Assembly: GCF_002005305.1 (NCBI RefSeq)
Contig: NZ_CP014782.1
Location: 216,706-240,705, forward strand
Reading direction: 5' to 3'
DNA: 24,000 nt
From: Shewanella psychrophila
Lineage (GTDB): Bacteria > Pseudomonadota > Gammaproteobacteria > Enterobacterales > Shewanellaceae
Of this stretch, positions 6,134-22,686 are shown piece by piece. Below the pieces are notes generated by a model. The model did not search any database, was not told the DNA's origin, and saw only the letters and a list, made by a program, of their open reading frames with translations. The translations under genes and the position numbers were made by a program. Position 1 is the stretch's first letter. Each line of letters begins with the position of its first letter.

Positions 6134-6517
6134 ATGTCAGAAGTAACAGGTAAAATCCGCACTACGTTAAGAGTTGAGGGATTGGTGATATTGCTAGCCT
6201 CATTACTGATCTACCACAAGTTTTCTTTTAGTTGGTCAGAATTCGCATGGTTTTTTCTGGCTCCAGATCTTGCACTATTAGCCTATATTCATAGTGCTAA
6301 ACTCGGTTCCCTTGCCTATAACCTATCCCATTCGTTTATTGGCCCCTTAGTCACCTTGTTATTTGGCGTACTGGGGGATTCACAAGTTGCAATTCAAATT
6401 TCATTAATCTGGTGTGGACATATAGGCTTCGATAGAGCCTTGGGTTATGGCCTGAAGTATTCAAAAGGCTTCTCCTACACTCACTTAGGTCAAATTGGTA
6501 AGAGTCAAAAGACATAG
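6134..6517 (+). CDS. DUF4260-like small membrane protein
   Basis: The ATG at 6134 is preceded by AAGGAAA SD. The 127-aa product MSEVTGKIRTTLRVEGLVILLASLL...HIGFDRALGYGLKY has about 4 hydrophobic segments. The track ORF start at 6029 lies partly in repeat-derived sequence and lacks an SD. Confidence 0.6.
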   Translation: MSEVTGKIRTTLRVEGLVILLASLLIYHKFSFSWSEFAWFFLAPDLALLAYIHSAKLGSLAYNLSHSFIGPLVTLLFGVLGDSQVAIQISLIWCGHIGFDRALGYGLKYSKGFSYTHLGQIGKSQKT

Positions 6518-7070: not shown

Positions 7071-7805
7071 ATGAACATTGATAAACTCTACTCGCTAGTT
7101 GAATCTCTTTCACACTGTCATACCCCTGAAGAAATTGAGAAAGTCTGCTTAAAGTTTTGCCAATTATGCGAGCTGGAATTTTTTCTGTTTGCTGTCTGTA
7201 ATGCAACGTCTCTTAGTGCGCCTAAAATCTTTACTCTCACCAACTACCCCAGTGAGTGGTTAGACGTTTATTATAAAAATAACTTTCAAAAAAGTGATGC
7301 CGTTGTGAGGTATTGCTTTGGTAATTCGGTACCCATCACCTGGAATAAGTTGATGAAAATTGATGAGTACAGTGAGCCTAATGCTGTTAAAGTAATGAAT
7401 GAGGCGCATTCAAAAGGTCTGATCGATGGCTTATCTGTTCCAATTAAGGCTCCAACCGGTGAAATTGCCATTTTAAGCTTAACGACTAAAATAGAACCTG
7501 ATGTTCAGCAACGTCTCGCCAATGTGCTCCCCTTTGTACAGTATTTTGGTTATTCGTTATTAGAAACCCACCTGAAAATGAATTTAGGAAAATCACCATC
7601 GGCTTCACTCACCCCCAGAGAAAAAGAAAGCTTATTTTGGGCATGTGAGGGTAAGACTGCCTGGGAGATGTCACAAATAATGAGTGTGGCCGAACGTACA
7701 GCAATATTTCATTTGAGCAGTGCCACTAAAAAATTGGGTGCGGCCAATCGGCAACATGCGGTTGCCAAAGCTGTGATGTATGGACTCATAAAACCACAGC
7801 CCTAA
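7071..7805 (+). CDS. luxR: LuxR-family AHL-responsive transcriptional regulator (autoinducer-binding domain + HTH)
   Basis: 244 aa. The N-terminal domain shows spacing of the conserved AHL-pocket residues (W..YY......SDAVV...PITW...GLSVPI). The C-terminal GerE/LuxR HTH reads LTPREKESLFWACEGKTAWEMSQIMSVAERTAIFHLSSATKKLGAANRQHAV. GGAAGGA SD is present. Confidence 0.9.
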   Translation: MNIDKLYSLVESLSHCHTPEEIEKVCLKFCQLCELEFFLFAVCNATSLSAPKIFTLTNYPSEWLDVYYKNNFQKSDAVVRYCFGNSVPITWNKLMKIDEYSEPNAVKVMNEAHSKGLIDGLSVPIKAPTGEIAILSLTTKIEPDVQQRLANVLPFVQYFGYSLLETHLKMNLGKSPSASLTPREKESLFWACEGKTAWEMSQIMSVAERTAIFHLSSATKKLGAANRQHAVAKAVMYGLIKPQP

Positions 7806-7904: not shown

Positions 7905-8876
7905 TTAATGAGACTGCATCGGAGTATGGGCGTCCTGACTTTTCTCTGGCATTAAGATTAAGCGACTACAAGCGCCTATATCAGTATTTGAATTTAGCTG
8001 CCAACCCTCAGTGGGGAGCGAAGCCAATTCTGTGAGCTTACTTACTGGTTTGTCATGAATCGGTAAGTGACAAATCACTTCGTCTGTTAATTTATTTTCC
8101 ATTAATGCTGACTGCATCTTGTCCTCTGTGAGGACCAATACACTACAGCGGTGCTCGCTAGCAAAATACTTAAGCAAAGTGCGCATACCTTCTATGGATG
8201 TGGCTTCATAAAATTCTTGGTATTCATTTGCATAATTTCTATCTGATAACTGCTCAATAAAGCCTTTTTGAGACGGCGAATACACCACGGCGCGGGATTG
8301 TTTCGCAATTTCATCTATATAGGCAACAAACCCAAATTCGCCTCGAAAATCTTCCAGACGCAATGACTTATCTTGGTTATCGGCTATGGATACGCTGGAT
8401 ACCCAGGGGCGATGACTCGATAGCACCATGTTAAGCCCTGAGCCAATTCTGCGTGTTGCATGTAAAAAGTCGACACTCTCGATCTCACCTTGCCATCGCC
8501 CTAGTGGCGATGCTCGAAAGCTCTGCATATCAAAGTCCATGACTGGCACTATGATTTTTTGGCAAGATGATTCGACGAGACTGCTGGCAAGCTCTTCACA
8601 GTCGAACAGTGATTCTAATGGCCATAGAGTCACAATTAATGTGTGCACCACATGGGCATAGCGATTTATGGACGCGGTCAAACTCAGATAGTTTGTGCCG
8701 GCAATGATAGCCTCGGAATGAATATGCAGGCTATTTTCATCGAGCAAGACCCAACCGATACCGGCTCTTTTAGATACCTTTTCAGCCGAAGTGATGGCTA
8801 AACTCATCGACACTTCGAGGGCTGCTCGTTGTTTTTGTTGTGTGTCTAGTTCCAAAATTTGATACATCCTGATCAT
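7905..8876 (-). CDS. RibD-like (deaminase + reductase fold) protein with degenerate catalytic motifs; function unknown
   Basis: 323 aa. By-eye alignment to RibD gives: IGWVLL vs VGCVIV; IVTLWPL...DC vs YVTLEPC..PPC; HRPWVSSVSIADNQD vs RPyVtlKlA.SLDG; VLVLTEDKMQSALMENKLTDEVICHLPI vs vwvEaGg.L..all.agLvDEl.vyiaP. The zinc-ligand PC..C and EGG motifs are not conserved. That the ORF is real is more certain than its function. Confidence 0.45.
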   Translation of the reverse strand: MIRMYQILELDTQQKQRAALEVSMSLAITSAEKVSKRAGIGWVLLDENSLHIHSEAIIAGTNYLSLTASINRYAHVVHTLIVTLWPLESLFDCEELASSLVESSCQKIIVPVMDFDMQSFRASPLGRWQGEIESVDFLHATRRIGSGLNMVLSSHRPWVSSVSIADNQDKSLRLEDFRGEFGFVAYIDEIAKQSRAVVYSPSQKGFIEQLSDRNYANEYQEFYEATSIEGMRTLLKYFASEHRCSVLVLTEDKMQSALMENKLTDEVICHLPIHDKPVSKLTELASLPTEGWQLNSNTDIGACSRLILMPEKSQDAHTPMQSH

Positions 8877-9225: not shown

Positions 9226-9813
9226 ATGAATAACACAGTATTTACTCAACATAATCTGCAAACTTCTGCTTCAGAACTTATTCTCGATGGCATCATGAGA
9301 TTACGTTACGAAACGTTCATCAAACGACTGGACTGGGATATTGCTTCTACAGATGGTCGCGAACAAGATTGCTTCGATGACAACGAAGCGCATTACATCG
9401 CCGTTCTTGAGGATGATAAAGATGTTATTGGCTGTTGGCGAGCCAGGAGTACCTTGCAAGATTATATGCTCAAGTCGGTGTTTCCCGAACTGTTACAGGG
9501 GGAGTCGGCACCTGTGCAAGATGATATCTGGGAGATCAGCCGTTTTGCCGTGAAAAAAGGCTCAGCTGAAACCCAGAAAGGATATTTTGGCGATGTCACC
9601 ATAGATCTTGTTAAGTCGTTTTATGATTTTGCGAAACAAAATGGAATAAAAAGCTATGTTACGGTAACCACAGTTGCCTGCGAAAGATTATTGCGTCAGT
9701 TAGGGGTGAATTTAAGGCGCATGGGCGATGGCAAGGTTAAGCAGATTGGTGTCGAGCGAACCGTAGCCCTGTGGATCCAAGTGGATGAAGATTTAAATAT
9801 CATTTCCCATTAA
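9226..9813 (+). CDS. luxI: LuxI-family acyl-homoserine-lactone synthase
   Basis: 195 aa. LRYETFIKRLDWDI....GREQDCFDD..AHYIAV......VIGCWRA..T...YML..VFPELL.G...P....IWEISRFAV is the canonical autoinducer-synthase N-terminal signature (R, F, W, D, D, R, E, SRF). Confidence 0.9.
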   Translation: MNNTVFTQHNLQTSASELILDGIMRLRYETFIKRLDWDIASTDGREQDCFDDNEAHYIAVLEDDKDVIGCWRARSTLQDYMLKSVFPELLQGESAPVQDDIWEISRFAVKKGSAETQKGYFGDVTIDLVKSFYDFAKQNGIKSYVTVTTVACERLLRQLGVNLRRMGDGKVKQIGVERTVALWIQVDEDLNIISH

Positions 9814-9825
9814 CATGTCAGGTTC

Positions 9826-9843
9826 AGTGTAAACGTTTGCACT
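9826..9843. terminator. Weak hairpin in the 38-bp gap between convergent luxI and the PPTase gene
   Basis: agtgtaaacgtttgcact is a near-palindrome (one G-U position) with no clear U tract. Confidence 0.25.
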
Positions 9844-9851
9844 TTCAACGG

Positions 9852-10682
9852 CTAAGATAGGTGAAAGGTTGCGACAGCTAATCGCTCAGCTACTCCAGGT
9901 CTAAGGTGAGAAATCAAATCATAGCTGACCCTCAAGAGTTTATTTGCATCTGCCTGCAAGCGTTTATGATTGGGGGTGAACAATAGCTGTCGATTGTCTA
10001 CGTCTATGGCAACTAAACGTGCAAGGGTAAAACTCAGGTTATCTCCAGGTTCGCTGAGGGCCTTGAATAAACTTTCTTTGGCCGAAAACACCAGTGTAAT
10101 GGCCAGCTCAAAACTGAGTTCGCTCTCCTCGACGCAGACTCGTTCTTGGTTCGACAAAATATACCGTGCTATTCCCTCGGCTTGTTTTTCATTGACTGTA
10201 AACTCAATATCCACGCCCACGCGACATGGATGAGGGGATGCTAGTGTCATGGCTAAGGCAAATTCACCACTGTGACTTATTGAGCCATAAAGCCCATCTT
10301 CCCATGAAGGTTTGCCACAGGGCGAGGTGCCGATCTTGATAGGCTGGAGCTGTGCCGGTTCCATTTCAGCAATATTCAGGATATTTTCCTGAGCCAGGCT
10401 GCTAACCGCGACAGCGGCGCAAAGTCGCCCAGCAAGAAAGTCTTGTTGACGCTTCTTACCCCAGGTCTTATAAAAATCTGTGTTTGGAAACCATAGTGCC
10501 ATGTCATTGGAGGAAAAGTTTTCGCGGTTAAAATGACCTAAAGTGATCACACAAGGGGACGATTCTATTTGCTGACCAAGATGACTCACCTGGATGAAAT
10601 CATCTTTAAAACAGCTGCAGAGTCTAGGGGACACTCGTGTCGTCTCATGGCTAACATGTTTATTTATCACTAAATTAGTCAA
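9852..10682 (-). CDS. 4'-phosphopantetheinyl transferase, EntD/Sfp type
   Basis: ...KKRQQDFLAGRLCAAVAV...GKPSWEDGLYGSISHSGEFALAMT...VGVDIE...FSAKESLFKAL aligns by eye to E. coli EntD. I prefer the TTG start at 10682 because it has AAAGGAG 8 nt upstream and does not overlap the preceding gene. The track start at 10754 would overlap the TE gene by 53 nt. Confidence 0.8.
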   Translation of the reverse strand: MTNLVINKHVSHETTRVSPRLCSCFKDDFIQVSHLGQQIESSPCVITLGHFNRENFSSNDMALWFPNTDFYKTWGKKRQQDFLAGRLCAAVAVSSLAQENILNIAEMEPAQLQPIKIGTSPCGKPSWEDGLYGSISHSGEFALAMTLASPHPCRVGVDIEFTVNEKQAEGIARYILSNQERVCVEESELSFELAITLVFSAKESLFKALSEPGDNLSFTLARLVAIDVDNRQLLFTPNHKRLQADANKLLRVSYDLISHLRPGVAERLAVATFHLS

Positions 10683-10701
10683 GTTGTGATCTCCTTTAGG
10701 T

Positions 10702-11472
10702 TTATGCGTTTGCCTCGATGGCTCGCTCATGTGCATGCTGGATCTGCTCGGCAACCCAAGCGCTGTGACTGCGAATAAAGAAATGACCCGCTTTAATTGT
10801 CTTTAATGGGGTGCTTGGCGGTAAGTGTTGTCGCCAAGCTTGCAATGATGTCTCTTCAATAAAGGTGTCTTCTGTCGCGCCTAATACCAGAGCCGGATGA
10901 GGATAGTATTGCTGACAGGCATTATGGGTCTCACACAGGGCCAAATCTGCGCGGATCACAGGTAAAATCCACTGTTTGAGTATCGACATTGACACCTTCA
11001 TTCCGGCGAAACTTTCGAAACGATTGAGATAATTGATCATCTCTCTATCATCCATCAGTGCATTGGGCTTAAATGGATACAGCTCCGAAGGCGCACGCTG
11101 CGCCCCTATAGCCAATAGCTCTGGGGGACAGGCCTCTTTTGCCAGTTGCTTGGCGATATACCATGCAAACCAAGCCCCCATACTGTGACCATATAGCATT
11201 ATCCTGTGCTGTTTTATGGCGGGTAAAATAGCTTGGCTCATGGCATTCGCAGCGGTCTTAAAGTCAGTATAAAAGGCTTCATGTCGGCGGCTATCCCGGC
11301 CAGGGAATTCCAGTGGCACCAAGTGGTAAGCATCACCAAAGAGTCCACTCAATCCGGCAAAGCTGGCACTATTTCCTCCGGCAAATGGAAAACATATTAT
11401 ATTCACTTTATCTGGCTTTATGACCTGTCCTAACCAGTCACTCGCCATAGCGTCGTCATGAGCTGTACACAT
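10702..11472 (-). CDS. Type II (editing) thioesterase, alpha/beta hydrolase
   Basis: ICFPFAGGNSASFAGL and the nucleophile elbow LYGHSMGAWFA are typical of GrsT/RifR-like TEII. I prefer the ATG at 11472 (MCTAHDD...) because of a GGAG 6 nt upstream. The alternative GTG start is at 11484. Confidence 0.85.
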   Translation of the reverse strand: MCTAHDDAMASDWLGQVIKPDKVNIICFPFAGGNSASFAGLSGLFGDAYHLVPLEFPGRDSRRHEAFYTDFKTAANAMSQAILPAIKQHRIMLYGHSMGAWFAWYIAKQLAKEACPPELLAIGAQRAPSELYPFKPNALMDDREMINYLNRFESFAGMKVSMSILKQWILPVIRADLALCETHNACQQYYPHPALVLGATEDTFIEETSLQAWRQHLPPSTPLKTIKAGHFFIRSHSAWVAEQIQHAHERAIEANA

Positions 11473-11487
11473 ATTCATCTCCACTGG

Positions 11488-12603
11488 TTAGCTGTGATTC
11501 AGGGATGTATCTGCAGATCCATAGTATTTCGCTCCTACTTTACGAACCTGGCGTTTAAGTAAGCGCTGGGTGAGTCCACGTAGCCAGTTTATCCGTGAGC
11601 CAGCTATCAGATCCGAGAAAATCCAGATCACTGTCAGCGGTAGATGATTCGGCGCCCCATGAATATCATCGACTTGTAAAATTTGATTGTGTGGAACGTT
11701 CGAACGAACCGCTTGCATATCATCAAGGGGAATAATCTCATCGCGGCTACTGGCAAGATAATGGATATTGGCGGAGATTCTTTCCAGAGATTCAGCCGAG
11801 AGGCCCCAATCGGAGATATGGGATTTAACCTCTGTGTTATCGCAGTCGAATATATGGGCTAAGGTATTGTAGGTAATATCCGGGATTGCTAATTTATTGC
11901 TACCATCACCAAAAAAGTCTGCAATAGGAGCGCCTACCGTGGTAATGGTATGAATATTACTGTTTTCGAGCGAGGCGTTCATGGCTAAATGGCCACCAAA
12001 GCTAAAGCCTATGACGTGCACATCTTGGGTATTAGCACGCCCCTGTAAACGTTTCAGTATACGACGAAATAACTGACTGTCGTGGGCATCGTATGGCAAG
12101 GTATTTTCTCCCACGCCGGGTAATTCCGTCAGCACCACACAATAACCAAGTTTTTTTGCCATGACTAACAAGCGGTGCCATTGCTCCTTGATTGATACTA
12201 TGCCGCCAAGTACCACAACCACAGGTTTGTTCTTGTCCAGACCTGCGGTATAGCAGCCAAAATCAGGGTCAGAAAAGCGCCAGTATTCAACATCGGGTAG
12301 TGTGTTCGCCAGCCATTGGCGGTATAACTGTTGGCATTTATTGAGCGCTTTTTTACGAGCAGGGTCACCTACATAGGGGAAGCGCGCCAAGTTATACAAT
12401 TGAATAGAGTCTTGAATATCTCCCGAAGATTCGGCCCGTTCGGCTAAGGATGACAGCACATAAGCCCAACTTCTCGGATCGCCGTGAATATCATTTTCTA
12501 TGTTGTGTAAGGCAAAATCTAATACGCTTTCATCTAATTTCTGCGCCCGACTATGAAGGCGCGCAAACGCCTTCAGCTCAGCGACATCATGTTGCTTTAT
12601 CAT
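11488..12603 (-). CDS. Alpha/beta-hydrolase fold protein (candidate Agg5/AbyA5/ChlD4-type tetronate acetate-eliminating enzyme)
   Basis: 371 aa. GxSxG elbow HVIGFSFGGHLA, with an N-terminal helical region reminiscent of FrsA/DUF1100 hydrolases. The start overlaps the upstream stop (ATGA). The specific role is inferred from cluster context. Confidence 0.7.
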   Translation of the reverse strand: MIKQHDVAELKAFARLHSRAQKLDESVLDFALHNIENDIHGDPRSWAYVLSSLAERAESSGDIQDSIQLYNLARFPYVGDPARKKALNKCQQLYRQWLANTLPDVEYWRFSDPDFGCYTAGLDKNKPVVVVLGGIVSIKEQWHRLLVMAKKLGYCVVLTELPGVGENTLPYDAHDSQLFRRILKRLQGRANTQDVHVIGFSFGGHLAMNASLENSNIHTITTVGAPIADFFGDGSNKLAIPDITYNTLAHIFDCDNTEVKSHISDWGLSAESLERISANIHYLASSRDEIIPLDDMQAVRSNVPHNQILQVDDIHGAPNHLPLTVIWIFSDLIAGSRINWLRGLTQRLLKRQVRKVGAKYYGSADTSLNHS

Positions 12604-13817
12604 GATATTTTCCCCATGGCTAATGAGCGTTGACGCTTGTATGAGATCTGATTGAGGATGCGATTCTGTATAAATGGCATGCGATTTAAAATGAAATAAA
12701 AGGCTTTACGCATACTCAGCATGAGTTTCGAGTCGCTACAGAGCATTTTTTCCTGGCGTTGTTGCATTTGAGTCACAAAATCGACTTGTGGTTGGCGCTC
12801 GCTTTGATAGCTTCTTAAAAATTGAGTATCGACGGCTTTATCTGATTGCACCTGTTGAGCCAGCATAGGTGCCAAAGTCATGGCGTCCTGAATGGCAATA
12901 TTTACGCCTTGACCCAGTAATGGGGTAAGTGTGTGCGCCGCATCGCCAATCATGATCAGGCCATCTTTACCCCACAGAGGCGCATGAGTGGTAAAGATGT
13001 CTAGTACATGGAGATCTTTCCAGCTGGTTATGTGCTTGCGAACATGTTGACCGAGTTCTGCGTTCACCTCATCAATCAGATTATAGAAACCATCTAGGCC
13101 TTCTTTCTTGAGAGCCGCGAATCCACCCTTGGGAATGTTCACTCCTGTACGGTATAGATCTGGGTAGGATGGCAGCAAGATGATGTGTTGAGCGCCATTG
13201 AGCAAGATATAGTATTTATGTTTATCCCAACCTTCAGGAATAGGCATCTTGCACCAAAGTACATCGCGCTCTTGTGGTGTTTTTGTGTAAGGAATGGCCG
13301 CTTTTTCACGGACTCTGGAATAACGACCGTCGGCGGCGATGATGGCTTTGGCATGGATGGACTTTTTCTCACCGGCTTCGCGATAAGTCACACCTATTAC
13401 GGTATCGTCTTTTTCGATGACACCGTCGAAGGCTGCGCCTCTGATCAATTTGGCATTTGGATATTGTGCCAGCTTCTCGGCAAGGGCATTGAGGAAGACC
13501 GGCTGAGGCACATCGATCATGAATTTATGCTGATAGGGCATTTTAGTGTAATTCATGTTGAGTCGTTTGGAGTCCCTCTCCCAAACCTCCAGTTCTTTAA
13601 ATATCATATAACCATGTTCATTTATCGCATCTGCGATACCCAATTCGTGAAAGATGCCAACGGTATCAGGCTGAATGGACTCACCGCGAAATGAACGCTC
13701 ATAACTTTTGTTGGCCTCCAGCACTGTGACATCGACGCCACTCTTTGCCAATTTAAGCGCTAAAACCAGGCCAGCTGGGCCACCGCCTACTATGCATATT
13801 TGACTAGTCTGTTCCAT
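12600..13817 (-). CDS. Class A FAD-dependent monooxygenase (UbiH/PHBH-like)
   Basis: 405 aa. GxGxxG ICIVGGGPAGLVLALKLAKSG, DG motif AADGRYSRVR, and GD motif MIGDAAHTLTPLLGQGVNIAIQDA. AGGAG SD is present. Confidence 0.9.
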   Translation of the reverse strand: MEQTSQICIVGGGPAGLVLALKLAKSGVDVTVLEANKSYERSFRGESIQPDTVGIFHELGIADAINEHGYMIFKELEVWERDSKRLNMNYTKMPYQHKFMIDVPQPVFLNALAEKLAQYPNAKLIRGAAFDGVIEKDDTVIGVTYREAGEKKSIHAKAIIAADGRYSRVREKAAIPYTKTPQERDVLWCKMPIPEGWDKHKYYILLNGAQHIILLPSYPDLYRTGVNIPKGGFAALKKEGLDGFYNLIDEVNAELGQHVRKHITSWKDLHVLDIFTTHAPLWGKDGLIMIGDAAHTLTPLLGQGVNIAIQDAMTLAPMLAQQVQSDKAVDTQFLRSYQSERQPQVDFVTQMQQRQEKMLCSDSKLMLSMRKAFYFILNRMPFIQNRILNQISYKRQRSLAMGKIS

Positions 13818-13827
13818 AATCTTACTC

Positions 13828-14595
13828 CTAAGTGTCTGCTTTTATGGACTCTAGGCCCAGTTTTAACTCTTCTAGTAAATCGGCTGCTTCGGCACCATCG
13901 ATGACGCGATGGTCGAAGGCCAAAGTGAGGGGTAACATATCGCGGATCACCACCTCGCCCTTTACTACCAGAGCCTTGGCTTGGATCTGTCCAAGCCCTA
14001 AGGTGATCGATGCGCCAACCTGAGGAATCAAAAGGCTGACAGGCTTCTGTCCCAGTGAGGTGATGGCAAATGAGCCCTGTAACTTATGTTTTAGCGTCGG
14101 CTTACTCATTAACTTGCCAAACAACCAACGTCCAAGTGGCACAGGTAACGACTGAAGCTTCTTCAGTCGGGGAAACTCTGGCCATAACGCGAGTGGTGTC
14201 TGTTTAAGAAACCTCACTTCCGACTGAATTTGCGCCAGAGATTTTGTTTCTGCATGTGCAATCAAGCCTGAACCGACACAGCGAACGCCATCAATCTCTT
14301 TATCCAGTGCAAACTTGCCGTGAACGGCTGGAAAACGATGTAACTTGGGGCGCCAACGTCCGGTTACGACTCCATTGGCGTCAGGGTGATTTGCCAGTGC
14401 CCGCCCCGTGGCATACATGACCATAGCGACGATTCCTGGCACTTCGGCTTGTTCTTGGCCTTTGGCTGTGGCTCTGAGTGTATTCATTGCTGTGGCATCG
14501 ATATCCGTGGATAAGAACACGGGACTGTATTGTGTCGACTGCTCTAAAAAATAGAGGGTATGACGACGAGAAAGAGGAAATGCGGTGTTATTCAT
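13828..14595 (-). CDS. 2-oxoacid dehydrogenase E2-like acyltransferase catalytic domain, standalone (candidate Agg4/AbyA4/ChlD3-type)
   Basis: 255 aa with no lipoyl or E3-binding domains. Catalytic motif LAFDHRVIDGAEAA (DHRxxDG). The start overlaps the ACP stop (ATGA). Confidence 0.8.
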   Translation of the reverse strand: MNNTAFPLSRRHTLYFLEQSTQYSPVFLSTDIDATAMNTLRATAKGQEQAEVPGIVAMVMYATGRALANHPDANGVVTGRWRPKLHRFPAVHGKFALDKEIDGVRCVGSGLIAHAETKSLAQIQSEVRFLKQTPLALWPEFPRLKKLQSLPVPLGRWLFGKLMSKPTLKHKLQGSFAITSLGQKPVSLLIPQVGASITLGLGQIQAKALVVKGEVVIRDMLPLTLAFDHRVIDGAEAADLLEELKLGLESIKADT

Positions 14596-14825
14596 AACGC
14601 TTCCTCTAAGGTGGCGAGCCGATGGATATCGCCTAAGGTGTTCGCTTTCAGGAAGGCAGGAATAGGAACTGGGTGTCCTGTCAGCATTTCGAGTTCAGAG
14701 AGTAAGCGGACAGCATGAAGTGAGTCCCAACCTTCGAGATCGACTAGCTGCATCGACATAGCCGACTCGGTTAGCTTAATGTCCATAAAATCTTCAACTA
14801 GTGCGATAAATTCATGTTTATGCAT
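14592..14825 (-). CDS. Acyl carrier protein (candidate glyceryl carrier)
   Basis: Start at MHKHEFIALVEDF... (ATG at 14825, overlapping the fkbH-like stop by 8 nt). Ppant-site motif LEGWDSLHAVRLL. The longer track ORF (to 14894) would overlap the upstream gene by 77 nt. Confidence 0.8.
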   Translation of the reverse strand: MHKHEFIALVEDFMDIKLTESAMSMQLVDLEGWDSLHAVRLLSELEMLTGHPVPIPAFLKANTLGDIHRLATLEEAL

Positions 14826-16722
14826 TGCAGCTTTCCTCATTAATCGTGGTGAGATGCCCTGGCAGTGGCGCAATTTCAGACAGGGTGTGAACAAACAATT
14901 GGCTTTTGGGAGTGCCAGTTGCTAGTGCCGATTGCGGCTGATGTGTCAGCGCTGTTGTGGTGAATCCCATAGATGGGTAGAAGGTGGCCATACGTTGGTT
15001 TTTATGGCTTAGTATGAATTCAGCCGTGACACTTGTTTTACCTGACGCCACAGCTTGGGCGAGCAATAAACTGATGGCTGCTTGTTCGATACCGCGAGAA
15101 AAAACTCGGCAGCTGAGCAGCATATTATCGATATGAGAAGTGTCCAAGGTCATGGATATCAGTACCGCACCAATCAAGCCATAATCACCAAATCTGTCAT
15201 GACTTCTCAGTACCCAAATCGATTTATTTTCATTTTCCAGATAGTCAATTACCGCTGCTTCGCTCAGACGCTGTGTGGTCATATTAAATTGATTGGTGCG
15301 TTGGCTGAGGTTGGCAATACGTGGCACATCTTCGGCTTTTGCATTAGTCAGACTCAGTTCAATATTCAGACTTTCAAGGAAAGAGGTCAGATCTTGACTA
15401 GAGGCCTTAAGCGCCTGTCGGTGAGTTTCCTGACGATACTTATGGGGGCGGTCCTTATCTTCGGCACTGACGGACATCATCAGAAAATCATTCATATTGG
15501 CCAACATAGCGGCAAAATATGCAGGTTCTCCGGTGACTTGCAGAGATGCCAGCGAAGGGTGTGCCGATTGCACTTCTTCACATTCAAAACTACTGTCGTC
15601 GACGAAAACAAAGCTGTCGATACCAATATTGAGGGACTCGGCAATGTCGGCTACCGCCTGACTTTTTGGCGACCAGTTGGCCTGTATATGAAGAAAGTCA
15701 CTGGCTTTTAGCACCATGTCTTGTCGTTTTTCAAATACGTTATCGACGTTTTCTCTGTCATTTTTACTGCTGATGTTGAGTAACACGCCTTGTGACGCAA
15801 ATTGCTTGATGACCCGCTGCAACAGCAGGTGTGCTTCACCGGCTGGGTTGCCATCCAGGCCAATGCCATCCACTCCATCGTCGCCTAATATCCCGCTCCA
15901 TAAGGTATTGTCCAGATCCAGAATCAGGGCTTTCTTACTGTGTCCCAGAGTCGACGCCGCCAAAGCCGAGACCTCACGGATCAATATGTCCATCAAGCCA
16001 TCTGAATAGGGCAGTTTTGCATAGAATGCCAATCGCTCGTCGCGCCAGCGAGACGTGCCAGTCATCAAACATTGCATGTCCAGCACCAACACGCGCTGAC
16101 TCAGTTCTGTCATTGCCAGCATATCCAGATTGAACTGCAGCCAGAGTCGGCTTAATTGATTTCTTTCCCGTGATCCCAGCATTTGACGCTGTAGCGATAA
16201 TGGCAGCGGAATGGTATTGAATATTGCCATTCCTCGAGTGTGTTCGAGTAGTTGCCTGACACCCTGTTGGCAGAGCGTCAGTACTTGTTCACACGCCTCT
16301 TGTATATCGGCTAAGCTCCAGGGGGTAGGCAATCTCTCTAAGATGATGTGTTCATCGAGCAGGCATAAGGAGTAGTCTGCCTCGGCCTTGATAAAGTCGC
16401 TATTTACATCGAGCACATCGGGTGCAAACTGATTGTAATCAGAAAGGTATAGCGATGGCATAAGTCCTTTTTCCAGGCTGCCAGCCGTCAGCAGTTCGCC
16501 GACCATAGCGGTACTGAAGGAGCCTGTTACCGCAAAATTGACTGGTTTAAAGCCTTGAGTATTCAGCCAGTCTTGAGAGATTTTGCGACACTTTCGTCCT
16601 GCACTGACCCTAGCTGTCGGATCCGTTGTGCGCCTCAAAGTTTGCATAAGCTGGTGGCGGTCACAGATGTTAACGCCAGCTAAATTAACTGCAAATTCAT
16701 TATTTTCGTTAGCAGATATCAT
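14818..16722 (-). CDS. FkbH-like HAD-IIIC phosphatase / glyceryl-S-ACP synthase
   Basis: 634 aa. HAD motif I in the FkbH context reads KALILDLDNTLWSGILGDDGVDGIGL, followed by LLNISSKN and FVDDS motifs and a C-terminal GNAT-like region. The length matches FkbH homologues of tetronate pathways. The start overlaps the upstream stop (ATGA). Confidence 0.85.
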   Translation of the reverse strand: MISANENNEFAVNLAGVNICDRHQLMQTLRRTTDPTARVSAGRKCRKISQDWLNTQGFKPVNFAVTGSFSTAMVGELLTAGSLEKGLMPSLYLSDYNQFAPDVLDVNSDFIKAEADYSLCLLDEHIILERLPTPWSLADIQEACEQVLTLCQQGVRQLLEHTRGMAIFNTIPLPLSLQRQMLGSRERNQLSRLWLQFNLDMLAMTELSQRVLVLDMQCLMTGTSRWRDERLAFYAKLPYSDGLMDILIREVSALAASTLGHSKKALILDLDNTLWSGILGDDGVDGIGLDGNPAGEAHLLLQRVIKQFASQGVLLNISSKNDRENVDNVFEKRQDMVLKASDFLHIQANWSPKSQAVADIAESLNIGIDSFVFVDDSSFECEEVQSAHPSLASLQVTGEPAYFAAMLANMNDFLMMSVSAEDKDRPHKYRQETHRQALKASSQDLTSFLESLNIELSLTNAKAEDVPRIANLSQRTNQFNMTTQRLSEAAVIDYLENENKSIWVLRSHDRFGDYGLIGAVLISMTLDTSHIDNMLLSCRVFSRGIEQAAISLLLAQAVASGKTSVTAEFILSHKNQRMATFYPSMGFTTTALTHQPQSALATGTPKSQLFVHTLSEIAPLPGHLTTINEESCNA

Positions 16723-17723
16723 ATGGCCTCCTGCTCAAGCACCAAGCCAGACTTCAACCATTTAGAGGACTCTATCGCTATCAAGAGGGCGGTTTGATTA
16801 TCTTCAATTCGATCTTGTAAGTGACTGAGCTGAACGAAGGGAAGTGCGTTACCATTATTACCTGTTTCGTGGACACAGCTAATAACCTGATCATCCTTCA
16901 AGCCTAAGTGTCGGATGATGTTATGTGTCATCCTTCCAGATAGCTGAGGGGGCAAATACCAATCTACTTCACCCGCAGTCTGCGTCGACAAGCTATCTAG
17001 AATCTCTGCGGCTAAACCGGGGACATGCTTTTCGATGGCCTTGTAATCTTCCATCAGCATGGTGTCATCACTGTCACGTAGGCCGCGCCAATTGACTATC
17101 TGTCCCGGTGGCAGATCTAAGCCGGTGTAATGACATTCGAACTGAGTTAGCTTCCAGCGCAATCCCGTTGCTTGGGTAGACATAATCATCGCCCCGGCGC
17201 CATCACCAAACAGCGCAAAGTTAATCTGTTCGTTGGCTTCACTTTGGCTGTAGTCTTTGAGAGGGTCGATAAACTTGGTACAGACATCGGCACCTATGAT
17301 GAGTCCGCGTCGATACTCACCACTTAACAATAAGGCTCGGGCCATAGACACGGCTTGCATCGCCCCGGTACAACCGGACTGCAGCTGGAAGGTCGCAATA
17401 TTGGCAGCGCCAAGCTTTTCCGCCACGAGATTGACCGTTGCAGGCATCAATTGATCCGGTGTTGCCGTGGCCATCACAATAAAATCCAGATCTTCACAGC
17501 CTATCTGCTCTATCTCCATGGCTTTTTGTGCCGCTTGTGTCGCTATGTCTGCTAGTGAGTTTTTTATTTCGCCAGTTTTCAAATCTGTAGTGAAGTAACG
17601 GCTACGATTTCCCAGGAATAAACTGACCCAATCGGCATTTAGCCCAAAACGTTCGGCAAGCAATGAATTATCTACCGGATCATTGGGCAGATAGTGTTGG
17701 CATTGATTAATATAAATAGTCAT
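16719..17723 (-). CDS. FabH-like KAS III family enzyme (candidate tetronate ring-forming condensing enzyme)
   Basis: 334 aa with a thiolase fold. The active-site Cys context is FQLQSGCTGAMQAVSMA, and a C-terminal ETGNNGNALPF aligns to the FabH GNTSAAS region. By my eye alignment, the region matching the FabH HQAN His motif reads PPQLSG. Confidence 0.85.
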   Translation of the reverse strand: MTIYINQCQHYLPNDPVDNSLLAERFGLNADWVSLFLGNRSRYFTTDLKTGEIKNSLADIATQAAQKAMEIEQIGCEDLDFIVMATATPDQLMPATVNLVAEKLGAANIATFQLQSGCTGAMQAVSMARALLLSGEYRRGLIIGADVCTKFIDPLKDYSQSEANEQINFALFGDGAGAMIMSTQATGLRWKLTQFECHYTGLDLPPGQIVNWRGLRDSDDTMLMEDYKAIEKHVPGLAAEILDSLSTQTAGEVDWYLPPQLSGRMTHNIIRHLGLKDDQVISCVHETGNNGNALPFVQLSHLQDRIEDNQTALLIAIESSKWLKSGLVLEQEAI

Positions 17724-17732
17724 GGAAATTTC

Positions 17733-20666
17733 CTATTTTAGGGGCAAGGTTGTTCGGTCCAGAATGGCCATTAAGTCGCCGACGGTTTGCACATCGAACA
17801 GTTCAGATAGTTCCGGCATGGCGTCTTCTCCTACCCGCTCACGTAGCTTATCGACCAGCTCAATTAAATTGACTGAATCTAGGCCCAGATCGGCGCTTAA
17901 ACGTTTGTCTGGGAGGATGAGCTCGGCTGGATGACCCGTCACGGAGGCGAGGACATCGATCACAAGACCGCTGATCTGTATGGCGGGTTTTTCTTTCAGC
18001 GGCTCTATGATTTTTTTCGAGCTAGTTATGGCTTGTTTGGAGTGAGTCGCTGGCTGGTGGGTACTCATTGACGTTTTGCGGAAGCGAGCCAGAGATTGGC
18101 GAGAAAAGTCAGTTAAATCGAAGGCAAAAGGCACTAGATCAGAATCCGATTCACTGGTGTTCAGGGCTGACCAGTTGATTGGCATACCTCGGCGGAACAG
18201 GGCCCTTAGGGTTTCGCAAAAGGTATTAATATCCTGGGGGTCTTCGATAGAGGAAGAGTAGAATTCACCAGTATTAGGGCCATTTTTGATCGCGAGCATA
18301 GATAGCACGGGAGCCGACCCCATCTCTATGCCTATGACTCCCTGTCCGCTGGGGATATCACCGAGTAAAGTATCGAAAGCAGGTTTGAACTTCACTGTAT
18401 TGACTAAGTGCCGAGACCAGTAATTTGCCTCTATGGCTTGTTGAACTTGCTTATTACCTGTGACTGTCGAGTACCAATTTAGCTGTGGAGCGTGATACTC
18501 GATCTTGCTGGCCGCAGCTTCTATATCTGACTTTGCCGCTGCCATTTGAGGGCTGTGGAAAGCATGGGTCACAGTGAGAGGCTTGATACGAACCTGCTTT
18601 TTTACGCCCCACATTCTTGCTGCTTCTATGGCTGCGCTGTCACCGGCAACGACAAATTGTGCATCGCTGTTCCAGACCGCAAGGGACAGGCCTGGAACAT
18701 CTTGCTGTAGTTCTGCCAAGGTTTCTCGTGAAGCTAATACCGCAGCCATTGCACCATTACCATTCACATCATCGATGGCGTCACCTCGGGCAATGACCAG
18801 AGATATAGCTTGCTCCATGGTCATCACACCCGCAATGCTTGCCGCTGCAAACTCGCCAATACTATGGCCTATTACAGCATCTGGCTTAAAACCAATTTCC
18901 ATCCACCATTGTGCCAGTGACCATTCGACGGCAAAGAGGACTGGTTGAGCAAAGCGAGCCTTGGTCAGCAAGCATGATGCTTGACTATCATTATCAATAA
19001 TTGGCATCAAAGAGCTGCCTGTTAGCTGTCGATAAACGGCATCGCATTGATCGAAGTAGCGACGGAGTCGAGGAAACGTCTTATATAGCCCTTTCATCAT
19101 TCCTGGGTACTGACAACCTTGGCCCGTAAACATAAATACCAGAGGAGCCTCATTGGCATCAAATGGTGCACGGTAAGTGGGTTTTCCCAATAGACGAGCA
19201 GATTCTTCAACTTCTTTACTGTTACGGCCAAAGCATAGGTCTCGTACCTGGCCTTGGCTTCTTAGCTGTTGATGCCCACTTGCCAATTGCTTTATGTCGG
19301 CGCCTTGAGAAAGGCTTCGAATTGCGGCATTTTTTTGCCTTTGAAAACCAGCTTCATCTTTGGCTGCGATAGGAATAAAGGCGGGTTCGGGAGCTGTGTT
19401 TACAACGGCGGATTTTGGTGAAGTAAATACCAGATGGGCATTGGTCCCGCCTAAGCCGAAGGAGCTGATGGCGAAGTGTTTCTTATGCTCGGCTCCCCAA
19501 GTTTCCCCATCACTGGAAAGTGCCAGATTTCCCTTGGCCACGAGTGGATTGGCTGTATCGGAAAATGGGTTAGCTGGGATCTTTCTGTGTTTGAGCATCA
19601 AGGCAACCTTGATAATGGAGGCCATTGCGGCGGCTGCTTCACAATGCCCAATTAGGGACTTTACCGAATCTATGCCGCAGGGGACTTTACGCTCTCCACG
19701 AAACACGCGATTAAGCGCATTAATTTCAATACGATCGCCTAAGGAGGTACCCGTGCCATGACATTCAATAAAATCTATGTCTGCAGGTTCCAGTGCTGCT
19801 TTGGAATAGCATTCTCGTAGCAGACTTTCTTGGGATGGTCCGTTAGGAGCGGTTAATCCATTACTCTGACCATCATGATTGATGTGTCCGGCGATGAAGT
19901 GACAATATTGGTTTCTGGCTAAGTGTTCGGGCTCAAGCACCACAGCCCCTATCCCTTCGGCGCGAATGATGCCATCGGCGTGATCTGAAAATGCATTACA
20001 GCGTCCACTGGGGGATAAGAGTCCGGCTTTTTGATAGAAGCGCTGCAATACTGGGGTAAGGATCGCATTGACCCCGGCGACAATGGCCAGATCACACTCA
20101 TCAGAACTTATCGCATTCCTCGCGTGCACCAGAGCCACTGCCGAGGAGGAGCATGCGGTCGCTATGGTCATACTCGGGCCTTTAAAGTCATATAAGTATG
20201 AGATACGGTTTGACAGTAAAGCGTGGCCTGTGCCCGTCACATGACCCGGCAACAAGGCATTGGTATCTTGAAACTGAAGTGTGGTCCAGTCATTAGCCAT
20301 GGCTCCGACAAACACCCCAACTTTTTGACCTCGAAGTGTCTTGGGGTTATAGCCAGCGTCTTCCAAGGCTTGCCAGACAATTTGCAGTAGCCAACGTTGC
20401 TGTGGATCCATTAAGGATGCTTCACGTCGATTGATTCCAAAGTGCTGATAGTCGAAGGCTTCAAGCTGCGAGACATAACCGCCTGGGACGGTCTGAAAAT
20501 AGGCCGTGTCTTGGGCATTATCAAACCACTCATCTGCCAGCCAACGTCCAGCAGGCAGAGGACATACGGCATTTTTTGCGGCACATATTTGCGCCCAATA
20601 TCCTTGCTTGTCATCTGCACCTGGAAATCGGCAAGCGACACCGGAAATAACGAGAGATTTCATCAT
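17733..20666 (-). CDS. Type I polyketide synthase, single module KS-AT-ACP
   Basis: 977 aa.
- KS: TACSSS (Cys172), ECHGTGT, IGHCEAAAA, GGTNAH.
- AT: GHSIGEFAAA and VTHAFHS (HAFH, malonyl-type).
- ACP: DLGLDSVNLIEL near the C-terminus.
No KR, DH, ER, TE or loading domain is present. Confidence 0.95.
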   Translation of the reverse strand: MMKSLVISGVACRFPGADDKQGYWAQICAAKNAVCPLPAGRWLADEWFDNAQDTAYFQTVPGGYVSQLEAFDYQHFGINRREASLMDPQQRWLLQIVWQALEDAGYNPKTLRGQKVGVFVGAMANDWTTLQFQDTNALLPGHVTGTGHALLSNRISYLYDFKGPSMTIATACSSSAVALVHARNAISSDECDLAIVAGVNAILTPVLQRFYQKAGLLSPSGRCNAFSDHADGIIRAEGIGAVVLEPEHLARNQYCHFIAGHINHDGQSNGLTAPNGPSQESLLRECYSKAALEPADIDFIECHGTGTSLGDRIEINALNRVFRGERKVPCGIDSVKSLIGHCEAAAAMASIIKVALMLKHRKIPANPFSDTANPLVAKGNLALSSDGETWGAEHKKHFAISSFGLGGTNAHLVFTSPKSAVVNTAPEPAFIPIAAKDEAGFQRQKNAAIRSLSQGADIKQLASGHQQLRSQGQVRDLCFGRNSKEVEESARLLGKPTYRAPFDANEAPLVFMFTGQGCQYPGMMKGLYKTFPRLRRYFDQCDAVYRQLTGSSLMPIIDNDSQASCLLTKARFAQPVLFAVEWSLAQWWMEIGFKPDAVIGHSIGEFAAASIAGVMTMEQAISLVIARGDAIDDVNGNGAMAAVLASRETLAELQQDVPGLSLAVWNSDAQFVVAGDSAAIEAARMWGVKKQVRIKPLTVTHAFHSPQMAAAKSDIEAAASKIEYHAPQLNWYSTVTGNKQVQQAIEANYWSRHLVNTVKFKPAFDTLLGDIPSGQGVIGIEMGSAPVLSMLAIKNGPNTGEFYSSSIEDPQDINTFCETLRALFRRGMPINWSALNTSESDSDLVPFAFDLTDFSRQSLARFRKTSMSTHQPATHSKQAITSSKKIIEPLKEKPAIQISGLVIDVLASVTGHPAELILPDKRLSADLGLDSVNLIELVDKLRERVGEDAMPELSELFDVQTVGDLMAILDRTTLPLK

Positions 20667-20753
20667 GTTCTCTTTTCCTTTATGGTTAAATATTTCAAAT
20701 TCATCGTCTTCTTGCCCATCGACTACCAGTCATTGCGCAGGGTAGGTGATAGG

Positions 20754-21008
20754 TCAGGCAAGTTGCGCGTTTTGCTCTTCGATCAGGAAGGCCGACATTT
20801 TTTCAATGGTGGGATAGTTCCATGTCAGCGTCGGCTCCACATCGATACCGATCAGGTCCTCAATATCTGCACATAGGCTCATTGCCGAGACTGAGTTAAT
20901 ACCGTATTCAGATAATGCGGTGGTCAGTTTGATGTCTTCCACAGGTTTACTGAGATACTCGGCAACCTTCTCTTGGATAAAAGTCATTAATTCGGTTTGT
21001 GTATTCAT
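20754..21008 (-). CDS. Standalone acyl/peptidyl carrier protein
   Basis: 84 aa. LSEYGINSVSAMSLCADIE is a carrier-protein Ser motif ((D/N)S). AGGAG SD lies 6 nt upstream. Confidence 0.85.
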   Translation of the reverse strand: MNTQTELMTFIQEKVAEYLSKPVEDIKLTTALSEYGINSVSAMSLCADIEDLIGIDVEPTLTWNYPTIEKMSAFLIEEQNAQLA

Positions 21009-21030
21009 GGTGTACTCCTGGTTGATTCAG

Positions 21031-22686
21031 TTAGTTATTGTCTGAATGGTTAGCTTTAGGTTGAAACATGAGTGAGGCCAAGGGATCGCCATCTGTGTCT
21101 TGTAGGTAATGGCTAATGGTGTCTGCAGCGCTCAGATAGTAGGTATTGGCTGACGGGTCACACATGGGCCGTGTCAGGCGCCAAAGCGTGATAAAGCCCA
21201 AGGCATGATGAATATCCTGACTATCGGTTGCGGTGATATTTCGTAGCACTGAAATGGCTGCAATCAGCTTGCAATAACGTGTTGCCGCGCCATAAATGTC
21301 CTGCTGAAGCGAGTCGAAGCACTGGGTTTTCAACGCTTCTAAGTCTGTCAGCAGGGATACCCATTCGGCTTGTTGGGCAAATAAGGCCCGGCAGCGTGCC
21401 GTTAATGTGGGCAAGAGAGAAAGTAGTGGATCTGATTTACTGCAGGACAGGCGCAGGGCAGACAGCCAGGACGTGTTGCTGGTATTTAAGGCCGTTAATA
21501 TTGAACTGGCATCGGATTGTGATTTCTCTGCCAGTAATCTTGGCAGCATATGCACTAAGCTAGTCTGGCAGACTAAGCTTCCGGCGTGGCCGAAACTCAC
21601 CACTGGAAAGTCTCTGACCAGCTTCTCGAACATGCCGAAATCATCGTTCATAAGGTAGTAACGAGCGCCTATTAGGCTGCCCATAGACTTGATTGCCTGC
21701 TTCATCAATGGGGGTAAGAAATATTTACTGGCTGAGCTATAACCGTTAGCGAATTGCGGAAATGCCTGTAAAGCGTGTCGCAGTAAGCTTGCCATTTCAC
21801 CAGCAAGCCAAACATCTGCGGTGGCTTCGGCAAGTTCTTTACGGTAAACCGGTATGGCAAATAAATTGTCACCATACAGGACGCGGTTTTGTGCGAAACG
21901 TGTGAGTATTTCCAGACCATTTCGGGCCGAGAATTGGCTGATAGCCGGTAGTAAGGTGCGGGTGATCTGGAATGCTTTCAAGGCATATTCGCCAGCGCGT
22001 CCCTGTTCACCAATCAGGCAAGAGTCGGCGATGAAGACACGATCGAAATAGATCCCCGAGATATGACAATTACGTACGCCTAAGGTGTCGAAGCGCCTCT
22101 CTATGCTCACTCCTTTCTGGTTTAATTCTGTCTGAGTCAGTAGAAATAAGCTGTGGCGACATGCTGGATTGTCATTGCCTGTATCGGCAAATAGCACCAA
22201 GCCATGGGCGCGGGCGAGGTTGTTGACGACCTCTTTACAGCCAGAAAGGAGATAGCCGCCCTCAACCTTAGAGGCCTTAAATGTCATGGCTGTTAAGTCA
22301 TTACCCGCCTGCAGTTCGTGATAGGCAATCGCAATGCGTCGGTCGTCACTCAGTAGAGCGGCAAGGGTTCGCTTCTGTTCATCGTTGCCGGCAACGGCCA
22401 GGTTGGTTGCCGCCATAAATGCGGTAAGGCAATAGCCCAGTCCCAGCGCCAGATCCTGACGGCACATCTCTCCCATTGCACTGGTCAGTGTCTCTAAGGT
22501 CACGCTCTCGTTATCCAGCAACCAGGTGGCGAGTAAATTACCCAGACCTGCCTGATGTATCACAGATTCCGCTGCCGTGTTGATTTCACCCGTGCGATCG
22601 AAGCTCAAAATTGCACTGGCTTTGAAGGCTGGGTGATGGTGATTAGCTTGGGCCAGCGCCGAGGATACATTGATAAAATCAGACAT
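21031..22686 (-). CDS. Acyl-CoA dehydrogenase-fold protein with long C-terminal extension
   Basis: 551 aa. ACAD middle and C-terminal domain pattern: YLLSGCKEVVNNLARAHGLVLFA...LFLL...GVSIERRFDTLGVRNCHISGIYFDRVFI...LIGEQGRAGEYALKAFQITRT.... No Glu at the position aligning to the MCAD YEGT motif (reads SFGHAGS). The start overlaps the upstream stop by 8 nt and has an AAGGAG SD. Confidence 0.75.
   Translation of the reverse strand: MSDFINVSSALAQANHHHPAFKASAILSFDRTGEINTAAESVIHQAGLGNLLATWLLDNESVTLETLTSAMGEMCRQDLALGLGYCLTAFMAATNLAVAGNDEQKRTLAALLSDDRRIAIAYHELQAGNDLTAMTFKASKVEGGYLLSGCKEVVNNLARAHGLVLFADTGNDNPACRHSLFLLTQTELNQKGVSIERRFDTLGVRNCHISGIYFDRVFIADSCLIGEQGRAGEYALKAFQITRTLLPAISQFSARNGLEILTRFAQNRVLYGDNLFAIPVYRKELAEATADVWLAGEMASLLRHALQAFPQFANGYSSASKYFLPPLMKQAIKSMGSLIGARYYLMNDDFGMFEKLVRDFPVVSFGHAGSLVCQTSLVHMLPRLLAEKSQSDASSILTALNTSNTSWLSALRLSCSKSDPLLSLLPTLTARCRALFAQQAEWVSLLTDLEALKTQCFDSLQQDIYGAATRYCKLIAAISVLRNITATDSQDIHHALGFITLWRLTRPMCDPSANTYYLSAADTISHYLQDTDGDPLASLMFQPKANHSDNN

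Follow-up and report, generated by a model that had tools for sequence, protein, structure and literature searches.

What does a compact set of tetronate-type genes make in Shewanella psychrophila, a gammaproteobacterium of the deep-sea type, given that nearly all studied tetronates come from actinomycetes? The genes lie in a stretch of 24,000 nucleotides of this species (contig NZ_CP014782.1, positions 216,706 to 240,705; hereafter the window, numbered from its first letter), in which an earlier note, made from the letters alone, had singled out six minus-strand genes at 11488-17723 as a cassette for a small agglomerin-like tetronate. We find the open reading frames (ORFs) exactly at these places and with the domain content described there, and conclude, with a probability of about 0.75, that this chromosomal locus holds all the genes, each of them intact, for making a small lipophilic metabolite derived from a tetronate, probably controlled by quorum sensing. 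Its product is most likely a 3-(unsaturated acyl)-5-methylidene tetronate which is then oxidised by a conserved monooxygenase. The cassette functions proposed at first are supported, while the plain agglomerin-like product gives way to a probably oxidised one in view of the conserved monooxygenase. Gene functions were assigned by homology, and we infer from them the order of steps, the substrates, the chain length and the final scaffold.

The cassette enzymes carry much of this argument. Profile hidden Markov model searches matched the five families ACP_syn_III, TIGR01686, 2-oxoacid_dh, PP-binding and Abhydrolase_1 (values in the table below). The motifs quoted in the earlier note (the GCTG cysteine, LDLDNTLW, WDSL, DHRVIDG and GxSxG) are all present, reading in full SGCTGA, LDLDNTLW, GWDSL, DHRVIDG and GFSFGG, and are kept in homologues; across 13 loci, the catalytic motifs of the cassette are intact and conserved.

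The ring-forming candidate is a FabH-like ketoacyl-acyl carrier protein synthase III (KAS III), which stays under both curated FabH cutoffs of NCBIfam (145.6 versus 249 and 131.1 versus 292.1 bits) and matches PDB entry 5BY7 with 275 bits, as opposed to at most 120 bits for genuine FabHs. It keeps the active-site Cys118, and the FabH motif PHQAN has turned into PPQLSG, the catalytic His being replaced by Pro. The signature PPQLSG, GNNGN and ESSKW is common to all FkbH-adjacent KAS IIIs that we examined. In a neighbour-joining tree, computed without the experimentally characterised members Agg1, RkD and ChlM, 5BY7 groups with the KAS IIIs of canonical Streptomyces cassettes (64-65% identity), and a long branch separates the whole FkbH-linked KAS III clade from FabH. 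A housekeeping FabH identity is ruled out by the His-to-Pro replacement and by the scores under the FabH cutoffs; the grouping with housekeeping FabH that the earlier note had named as a possible refutation was not seen.

The FkbH-like protein reaches 316.7 bits against a TIGR01686 cutoff of 146.65 and has no Pfam match. An alignment of 14 sequences shows DLDNT, SKND, DDS and LSCRVF to be conserved, and the protein retains its full set of HAD motifs together with the SCRV cysteine. Adjoining it is a discrete acyl carrier protein (ACP2) with the phosphopantetheine serine in the conserved GWDSL. The E2-like protein consists of a bare catalytic domain, without lipoyl or subunit-binding domains, in which DHRVIDG and SLG are conserved. 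Its similarity to genuine E2 structures is weak (1e-9), and it shares 35-47% identity with the E2-like counterparts in other KAS III-FkbH-ACP cassettes, including 39% to the NvlG-like protein of a Nostoc locus of the nostovalerolactone (nvl) type (L016); NvlG has been published as an Agg4 homologue (PMC9324945). The hydrolase, finally, aligns with the solved lyase AbyA5 (5NO5/4YWF) over residues 5-333 (329 residues; E 1.3e-65, 225 bits), and its Ser (FSFGG), Asp (RDEIIP) and His (DDIHGAP) fall on AbyA5 positions such that a candidate triad is kept. An exhaustive search of 1.84 billion representatives returned 76 at E<=1e-30, which points to a small, dedicated family. Its proposed relationship to the Agg5/AbyA5 enzymes is thereby upheld. 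Of the sequence-based grounds for refutation that the earlier note had listed, none was borne out.

Where does the acyl chain come from? The public contig L001, 100% identical to window positions 9333-24000, places the start of the operon outside the window, showing a 582-amino acid (aa) fatty acyl-AMP ligase (FAAL) upstream and the full 588-aa form of the first of two acyl-CoA dehydrogenase-like proteins (ACAD1 and ACAD2). Judging by these genes, the acyl chain is predicted to be supplied by a dedicated FAAL, two ACADs, an ACP (ACP1) and a single polyketide synthase (PKS) module, and not by primary metabolism, from which we take the acyl chain of agglomerin to be drawn. The PKS module lacks reductive domains and carries the motifs IATACSSS, HGTGT, KSLIGH, GHSIG, HAFH and LGLDSV; its ketosynthase (KS) has the Cys/His/His set, and its acyltransferase (AT), with GHSIG and HAFH, is of the malonyl type. 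ACP1, presumed to accept the FAAL-activated fatty acid, is encoded in related loci, too, after the ACAD genes and before the PKS gene, and ACAD2 is always paired with ACAD1 there. The ACAD fold of ACAD1 was confirmed, with an invariant Asp (FDGNT) aligned with the catalytic Glu of classical ACADs, and ACAD2 has a Gly-His (F/L-GHA) at the aligned position instead of an acidic residue. This difference holds in all family members and suggests a catalytic/non-catalytic heteromer in which ACAD2 may be the non-catalytic partner.

FkbH and ACP2 might instead supply a hydroxymalonyl- or methoxymalonyl-ACP extender unit to the PKS, in the manner of the FkbGHIJK pathways, in which case the ACADs would take the FkbI role. 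In favour, FkbH, a discrete ACP and ACAD-family genes are found side by side in this locus, and one Kitasatospora homologue is annotated at NCBI as 'methoxymalonyl-ACP biosynthesis protein FkbH'. We rejected this alternative, which we regard as extremely improbable, since no ORF of the window or of L001 encodes an FkbK-type 3-hydroxyacyl-CoA dehydrogenase or an FkbG-type O-methyltransferase and the AT has the malonyl-type HAFH. In addition, the ACADs are 550-590 aa long and stand with FAAL and ACP1 rather than with FkbH, and extender supply would leave the KAS III, the E2-like protein and the AbyA5-like lyase unexplained. Hardly any more credible is a linear polyketide of the oocydin or bryostatin type, for which FkbH would provide a glycerate starter and no tetronate ring would form. 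FkbH domains do load glycerate in some PKS pathways (oocydin), yet the FkbH here is discrete and translationally coupled to a free ACP and the FabH-like enzyme, a FAAL/ACP system already provides the PKS with its starter, and an AbyA5-type lyase would have no role. For these reasons, this candidate was rejected as well.

The tetronate-forming cassette and the acyl supply genes are parts of one operon. Minus-strand ORFs run unbroken from 9852 up to the right end of the window, and with L001 added the order is FAAL, ACAD1, ACAD2, ACP1, KS-AT-ACP, the six-gene cassette, a type II thioesterase and a phosphopantetheinyl transferase (PPTase). At the junctions examined, four neighbouring pairs overlap by 4-8 nt (KAS III/FkbH; FkbH/ACP2, 8 nt; ACP2/E2, 4 nt; monooxygenase/lyase, 4 nt), gaps of 9-10 nt are seen elsewhere, and a GGAG/AGGA-type ribosome-binding site precedes each gene. 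The ACAD1 and ACAD2 genes overlap by 8 nt. For ACP2, the longest ORF reaches 14894; in six public contigs, the gene has been called as the 77-aa version that begins with the ATG.

Could the locus be a silent or decaying remnant of horizontal acquisition that makes nothing? The copy in Acidiferrobacter thiooxydans (CP080624, L023) is broken by several insertion sequence elements and lacks the FAAL/ACAD/PKS loader part, and a search with eight window proteins, RlmJ, RsmJ and four cluster proteins among them, gave no relative at >=90% identity. In Shewanella, however, none of the 13 operon genes of the window and L001 is truncated, their catalytic motifs and ribosome-binding sites are intact, and many independent runs yielded the same sequence, all of which makes decay very unlikely.

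As a separate observation, positions 1-22 of L001, a Logan contig (SRR14867515), are Illumina adapter, and several contigs of the same series stop near the operon boundaries. These contigs may be RNA-seq assemblies, which would mean that the operon is transcribed.

Features of the analysed window and the evidence for their assignment (window coordinates; aa, amino acids)
Feature	Position	Strand	Evidence or remark
ACAD1 (acyl-CoA/ACP dehydrogenase-like), 588 aa	22679..24000	(-)	5' part beyond window end
ACAD2 (acyl-CoA/ACP dehydrogenase-like), 551 aa	21031..22686	(-)	Acyl-CoA_dh_M + Acyl-CoA_dh_1
ACP1, 84 aa	20754..21008	(-)	PP-binding 9e-14
Type I PKS module KS-AT-ACP, 977 aa	17733..20666	(-)	ketoacyl-synt 2.5e-75, Acyl_transf_1 1.7e-51, PP-binding
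FabH-like KAS III, FkbH-linked (putatively tetronate-forming) clade	16719..17723	(-)	ACP_syn_III 1e-14
FkbH-like glyceryl-S-ACP synthase, 634 aa	14818..16722	(-)	TIGR01686 316.7 bits; HAD-IIIC 76 bits
ACP2, 77 aa, presumed glyceryl carrier	14592..14825	(-)	PP-binding 1.4e-4
Standalone E2-type acyltransferase (Agg4/NvlG-like), 255 aa	13828..14595	(-)	2-oxoacid_dh PF00198 5.7e-23
Class A FAD-dependent monooxygenase, 405 aa	12600..13817	(-)	FAD_binding_3 1.8e-47
AbyA5/Agg5-type alpha/beta-fold acetate-eliminating lyase (putative), 371 aa	11488..12603	(-)	FrsA-like/Abhydrolase_1 about 1e-11
Type II thioesterase, 256 aa	10702..11472	(-)	Thioesterase PF00975 1.8e-21
Sfp/EntD-type phosphopantetheinyl transferase, 276 aa as called	9852..10682	(-)	4PPT_N + ACPS; EntD model 6e-29
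LuxI-family acyl-homoserine-lactone synthase	9226..9813	(+)	Autoind_synth 2.2e-29; TraI-type models; convergent with operon
323-aa protein without family, between luxR and luxI	7905..8876	(-)	cluster membership uncertain
LuxR-family autoinducer-binding regulator	7071..7805	(+)	Autoind_bind 4.7e-28 + GerE
DUF4260 small membrane protein, 127 aa from ATG at 6134	6134..6517	(+)	DUF4260 4e-37

The sixth cassette gene, which encodes a class A monooxygenase dependent on flavin adenine dinucleotide (FAD), bears most directly on the nature of the product. Its presence had been recorded in the earlier note, whose mechanism nevertheless left out what turns out to be a conserved cassette member. The motifs GGGPAG, ADGRYS and GDAAH are conserved, and in 11 loci of Gammaproteobacteria, Alphaproteobacteria and cyanobacteria (L007, L008, L015, L017-L024) the gene is flanked by those of the E2-like protein and the lyase. 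The nvl-like locus L016 has the monooxygenase after the E2 gene, and a lyase gene was not seen in the 22 kb fetched; the canonical Streptomyces cassettes L010 and L011 have no such monooxygenase. This pattern marks the enzyme as a predicted integral, co-inherited member of a distinct cassette subtype. The pathway therefore probably ends in a derivative that has been oxidised or rearranged, and what it makes may differ from a simple analogue of agglomerin. An AlphaFold (AF2) model built on 38 homologues (pLDDT 95) has as its best fold match the Bacillus niacini FMO with bound 2,6-dihydroxypyridine (TM 0.88), followed by PqsL, UbiI/UbiH and squalene epoxidase, with MtmOIV lower still. Such a match would fit oxygenation of an electron-rich enolic ring carbon, for example that of an acyl-tetronate.

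Would a plain agglomerin-like 3-acyl-5-methylidene tetronate do as well, with the monooxygenase merely decorating the acyl chain by epoxidation or hydroxylation, or being dispensable? None of the five canonical cassette functions is missing or damaged, the Streptomyces cassettes L010/L011 work without such an enzyme, and chain alkenes made by the ACADs would be open to epoxidase-like attack, to which a weak squalene-epoxidase Pfam match (7e-8) could be added. We nevertheless consider this outcome unlikely, although not to the degree of the alternatives above. The gene sits inside the cassette, overlapping that of the lyase, at the same place in so many loci, and the closest structure acts on a ring enol and not on an alkene. 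Moreover, an oxidative ring rearrangement has been proposed for the nvl pathway, with the homologous NvlH as one of two candidates for that step (PMC9324945). A bolder extension of the oxidised-tetronate reading is that the trio of monooxygenase, AbyA5-like lyase and DUF4260 protein turns a simple acyl-tetronate into a rearranged oxygenated lactone with a new scaffold, a LuxR-controlled signal or antibiotic common to Shewanella, Enterovibrio, Serratia, Rouxiella and Acinetobacter. We put this forward tentatively, as something that we would sooner doubt than expect; if true, a class of small molecules common among Gammaproteobacteria would so far have gone unrecognised.

How widely is the cluster distributed? 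We count at least 12 independent loci, spread over five phyla or classes, that repeat this gene order, a recurrence far beyond chance. In full, the family order reads FAAL, ACAD, ACAD, ACP, PKS, KAS III, FkbH, ACP, E2-like, monooxygenase, lyase, thioesterase and DUF4260, often followed by LuxR-type and PPTase genes. The closest copy is that of Enterovibrio paralichthyis (L007), with 45-78% amino acid identity (57-78% if the PPTase is left out). Its different flanks, in another genus, argue for horizontal mobility. In this contig, positions 16802-20051 following the cluster hold an MMPL/RND-type transporter and a LolA-like protein in place of DUF4260 and LuxR; the transporter is a plausible exporter of a lipophilic product.

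More distant members, at 32-54% identity, show the full order in Serratia marcescens (CP063229), a Rouxiella badensis-type contig and assembly GCA_000518745. At the same level of identity, the family order is also found in Acinetobacter sp. (L024), where a 625-aa KS-ACP protein lacks the AT domain, and in Logan contigs L017 and L020; a third Logan contig, L019, is a 7.6-kb fragment covering FkbH to DUF4260 only, and the interrupted Acidiferrobacter copy falls within this identity range too. Microcystis wesenbergii has the same gene set without DUF4260 (29-49%), Streptomyces daqingensis and S. ovatisporus carry a rearranged version, and the Nostoc locus L016, with its nvl arrangement, is 31-47% identical protein by protein. 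Plasmid pOB3b3 of Methylosinus trichosporium OB3b (L018, 101536-107737) bears the six-gene cassette in the same order, including the monooxygenase. On this methanotroph plasmid, a LuxR-like regulator precedes the cassette and very large type I PKS genes follow it.

The earlier expectation that the locus is probably undescribed holds insofar as we found no paper on the cluster family: our literature search returned none on tetronates in Vibrionaceae, on polyketide clusters of Shewanella psychrophila, or on the FAAL/ACAD/DUF4260 architecture. The locus is not unique, however, being present in public Serratia, Rouxiella, Acinetobacter and Enterovibrio genomes. The family is thus an orphan, widely distributed, compact one of the tetronate type, which is conceptually expected and which genome-mining software would probably detect. 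As to metabolite class, the genes suggest a tetronate-type lactone, small and lipid-like, that would serve as an antibiotic or a signal, no product having been assigned to the cluster family.

Is the operon under quorum-sensing control? Three loci that carry a LuxR-type gene (L015, L020 and L021) have an 18-bp palindrome with perfect arms, CCTGTC-N6-GACAGG; the FAAL start follows 146, 146 and 202 nt downstream. Lux-box-like sites are also found in Enterovibrio (CCTGTCGTATATATCAGG, at -141 relative to the FAAL start) and in Shewanella (CCTGTCACATATGATAGCAGG, at -140; L001 183-203, outside the window), and both share a second box, CCTGTCAGAA, at about -80 (-80/-81). Together, these candidate sites support LuxR-type control of the operon. 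In Serratia, L020, L021 and Methylosinus, the cluster is flanked by genes for LuxR homologues of 37-58% identity, and L022 has an Autoind_bind+GerE gene at the same place. We note that a complete LuxI/LuxR pair is seen in Shewanella, and in the other family members examined a LuxR-type gene only.

The DUF4260 gene is a faithful companion of the proteobacterial branch of the family; in L015, L017 and L019-L024, it is the next gene after that of the thioesterase. Because its product has invariant polar residues (PD, YN.TH, H...DR, G.GLK and THL), the sequences suggest a role as an enzyme or in immunity rather than as a passive membrane protein.

To the left of the operon, luxI, the gene of the 323-aa protein, luxR and the DUF4260 gene give way to housekeeping genes (rsmJ, rlmJ and others). 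RsmJ is 94% identical to that of Shewanella violacea, and every named protein among its 120 best matches is from Shewanella, which confirms the gammaproteobacterial context that had been read from the letters. The 323-aa protein (7905-8876) gave zero Pfam or NCBIfam matches even at E<=10 and has no homologue in the related loci; a paralogue (>=90% identity, 316 aa) is encoded elsewhere on the same contig. After its gene, at 7866-7838, lies a strong hairpin terminator with a 13-bp stem. Separately, a tandem repeat at 5604-6024 (164-bp unit, 2.6 copies, 98% identical), the first copy of which overlaps the last ~92 nt of rsmJ, sits exactly between the housekeeping genes and the DUF4260 gene and may mark an island junction.

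How might these parts work together? In the pathway that we propose, the FAAL encoded just outside the window would adenylate a fatty acid and load it onto ACP1, the ACAD1/ACAD2 pair would desaturate the acyl-ACP, and the KS-AT-ACP module would add one C2 unit from malonate to give a 3-oxo-(enoyl)acyl-ACP. FkbH would move a C3 glyceryl unit from 1,3-bisphosphoglycerate to ACP2, upon which the FabH-like enzyme, with its Cys kept and the decarboxylation His lost, would join both thioesters by C-C and C-O bonds to a 3-acyl-5-hydroxymethyl tetronate. The E2-like enzyme would acetylate the 5-hydroxymethyl group and the AbyA5-like lyase eliminate acetate, leaving a 5-methylidene. Lastly, the class A monooxygenase may oxygenate the electron-rich enolic ring or the adjacent alkene, possibly triggering a rearrangement, such that the end product would be an oxidised relative of agglomerin and not agglomerin itself. 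The type II thioesterase would edit the carriers and the PPTase prime the three carrier domains, with DUF4260 as a putative accessory membrane protein. Control is probably exerted by the LuxR-type regulator, which in this locus is paired with a LuxI, via the lux-box-like site about 140 nt upstream of FAAL.

Several points weigh against this pathway and temper the probability given at the outset. Every step is derived from homology, and the orthology of the KAS III and the E2-like protein to characterised enzymes would rest on synteny, on 5BY7, whose biological role is unstated, and on the published statement about NvlG. The substrate assumed for the monooxygenase comes from the structural model and the gene's surroundings; the number of desaturations is uncertain, given an ACAD2 that has no acidic residue at the catalytic position; and the lux-box-like site of Shewanella is imperfect.

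Against the actinomycete background of the field, the family seen here is compact and spread through the Gammaproteobacteria, with a single FAAL-primed PKS module, a monooxygenase and a linked LuxR-type regulator as its traits. Its hosts include the clinically and agriculturally relevant genera Serratia, Acinetobacter and Rouxiella, with cyanobacterial and actinomycete cousins. Being small (about 17 kb in one operon), the cluster is an easy target for heterologous expression, which could yield a new bioactive lactone, the function of DUF4260 and the role of the cassette-embedded flavoenzyme, a matter also at issue in the nostovalerolactone pathway.

How does the cluster compare with known pathways? 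Agglomerin (Agg1-5, 'Pantoea agglomerans' PB-6042, HF565364) shares a gammaproteobacterial host and the same five cassette functions, and a small acyl-tetronate with an exocyclic methylene would likewise be expected from Shewanella. The agglomerin cluster has seven genes, with homologues in 178 Dickeya and 2 Musicola genomes (PMC11350110). In contrast to this compact seven-gene type, which has no dedicated PKS or FAAL, the Shewanella cluster possesses its own FAAL, two ACADs, ACP and PKS module, as well as the embedded monooxygenase, DUF4260, thioesterase, PPTase and LuxI/LuxR. The 120 best relatives of its FkbH include neither a Dickeya nor a Pantoea protein, so that it is apparently not a close orthologue of the agglomerin cluster.

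With RK-682 of Streptomyces (RkC, RkD, RkE, RkF), the likeness is one of logic, namely a fatty acyl starter, one non-reducing extension and fusion with glyceryl-ACP by a FabH-like enzyme. RkC enters this comparison in the role that we assume for it in the RK-682 pathway, and RK-682 presumably keeps its 5-hydroxymethyl group, hence the lack of an Agg4/Agg5-type pair. Unlike the Shewanella cluster, that pathway has neither ACADs nor an embedded monooxygenase; the roles of RkD, RkE and RkF are taken as cited in PMC9324945. For abyssomicin (AbyA1-A5, Verrucosispora), the likeness lies in the match of the lyase to AbyA5, of only moderate identity (225 bits). In its actinomycete host, the abyssomicin cassette belongs to a large modular PKS pathway that leads to a spirotetronate. 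A link may also exist to tundrenone, a quorum-sensing-regulated gammaproteobacterial metabolite; a figure legend that came up in this connection mentions HAD and ACP genes.

Nostovalerolactone of Nostoc punctiforme offers a further parallel. Its pathway has the order NvlD (FabH-like), NvlE, NvlF, NvlG (Agg4-like) and NvlH (FAD monooxygenase), together with FAAL/ACAD priming, the Agg5-like NvlN and the proposed oxidative rearrangement (PMC9324945). The Shewanella cluster shares the FabH-like/FkbH/ACP/Agg4-like/FAD monooxygenase order, priming by FAAL and ACAD, and an Agg5-like enzyme. It differs in having one PKS module instead of four extension modules (NvlJ-M), two discrete ACADs instead of one fused FAAL-ACAD-ACP protein, and one monooxygenase where nvl has an extra Baeyer-Villiger monooxygenase (NvlQ), and in its overlapping monooxygenase and lyase genes; the nvl product, moreover, is a rearranged bicyclic delta-valerolactone and not a simple tetronate. 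Thus, the Shewanella cluster is predicted to work like the agglomerin, RK-682 and nostovalerolactone pathways while being a strict member of none.

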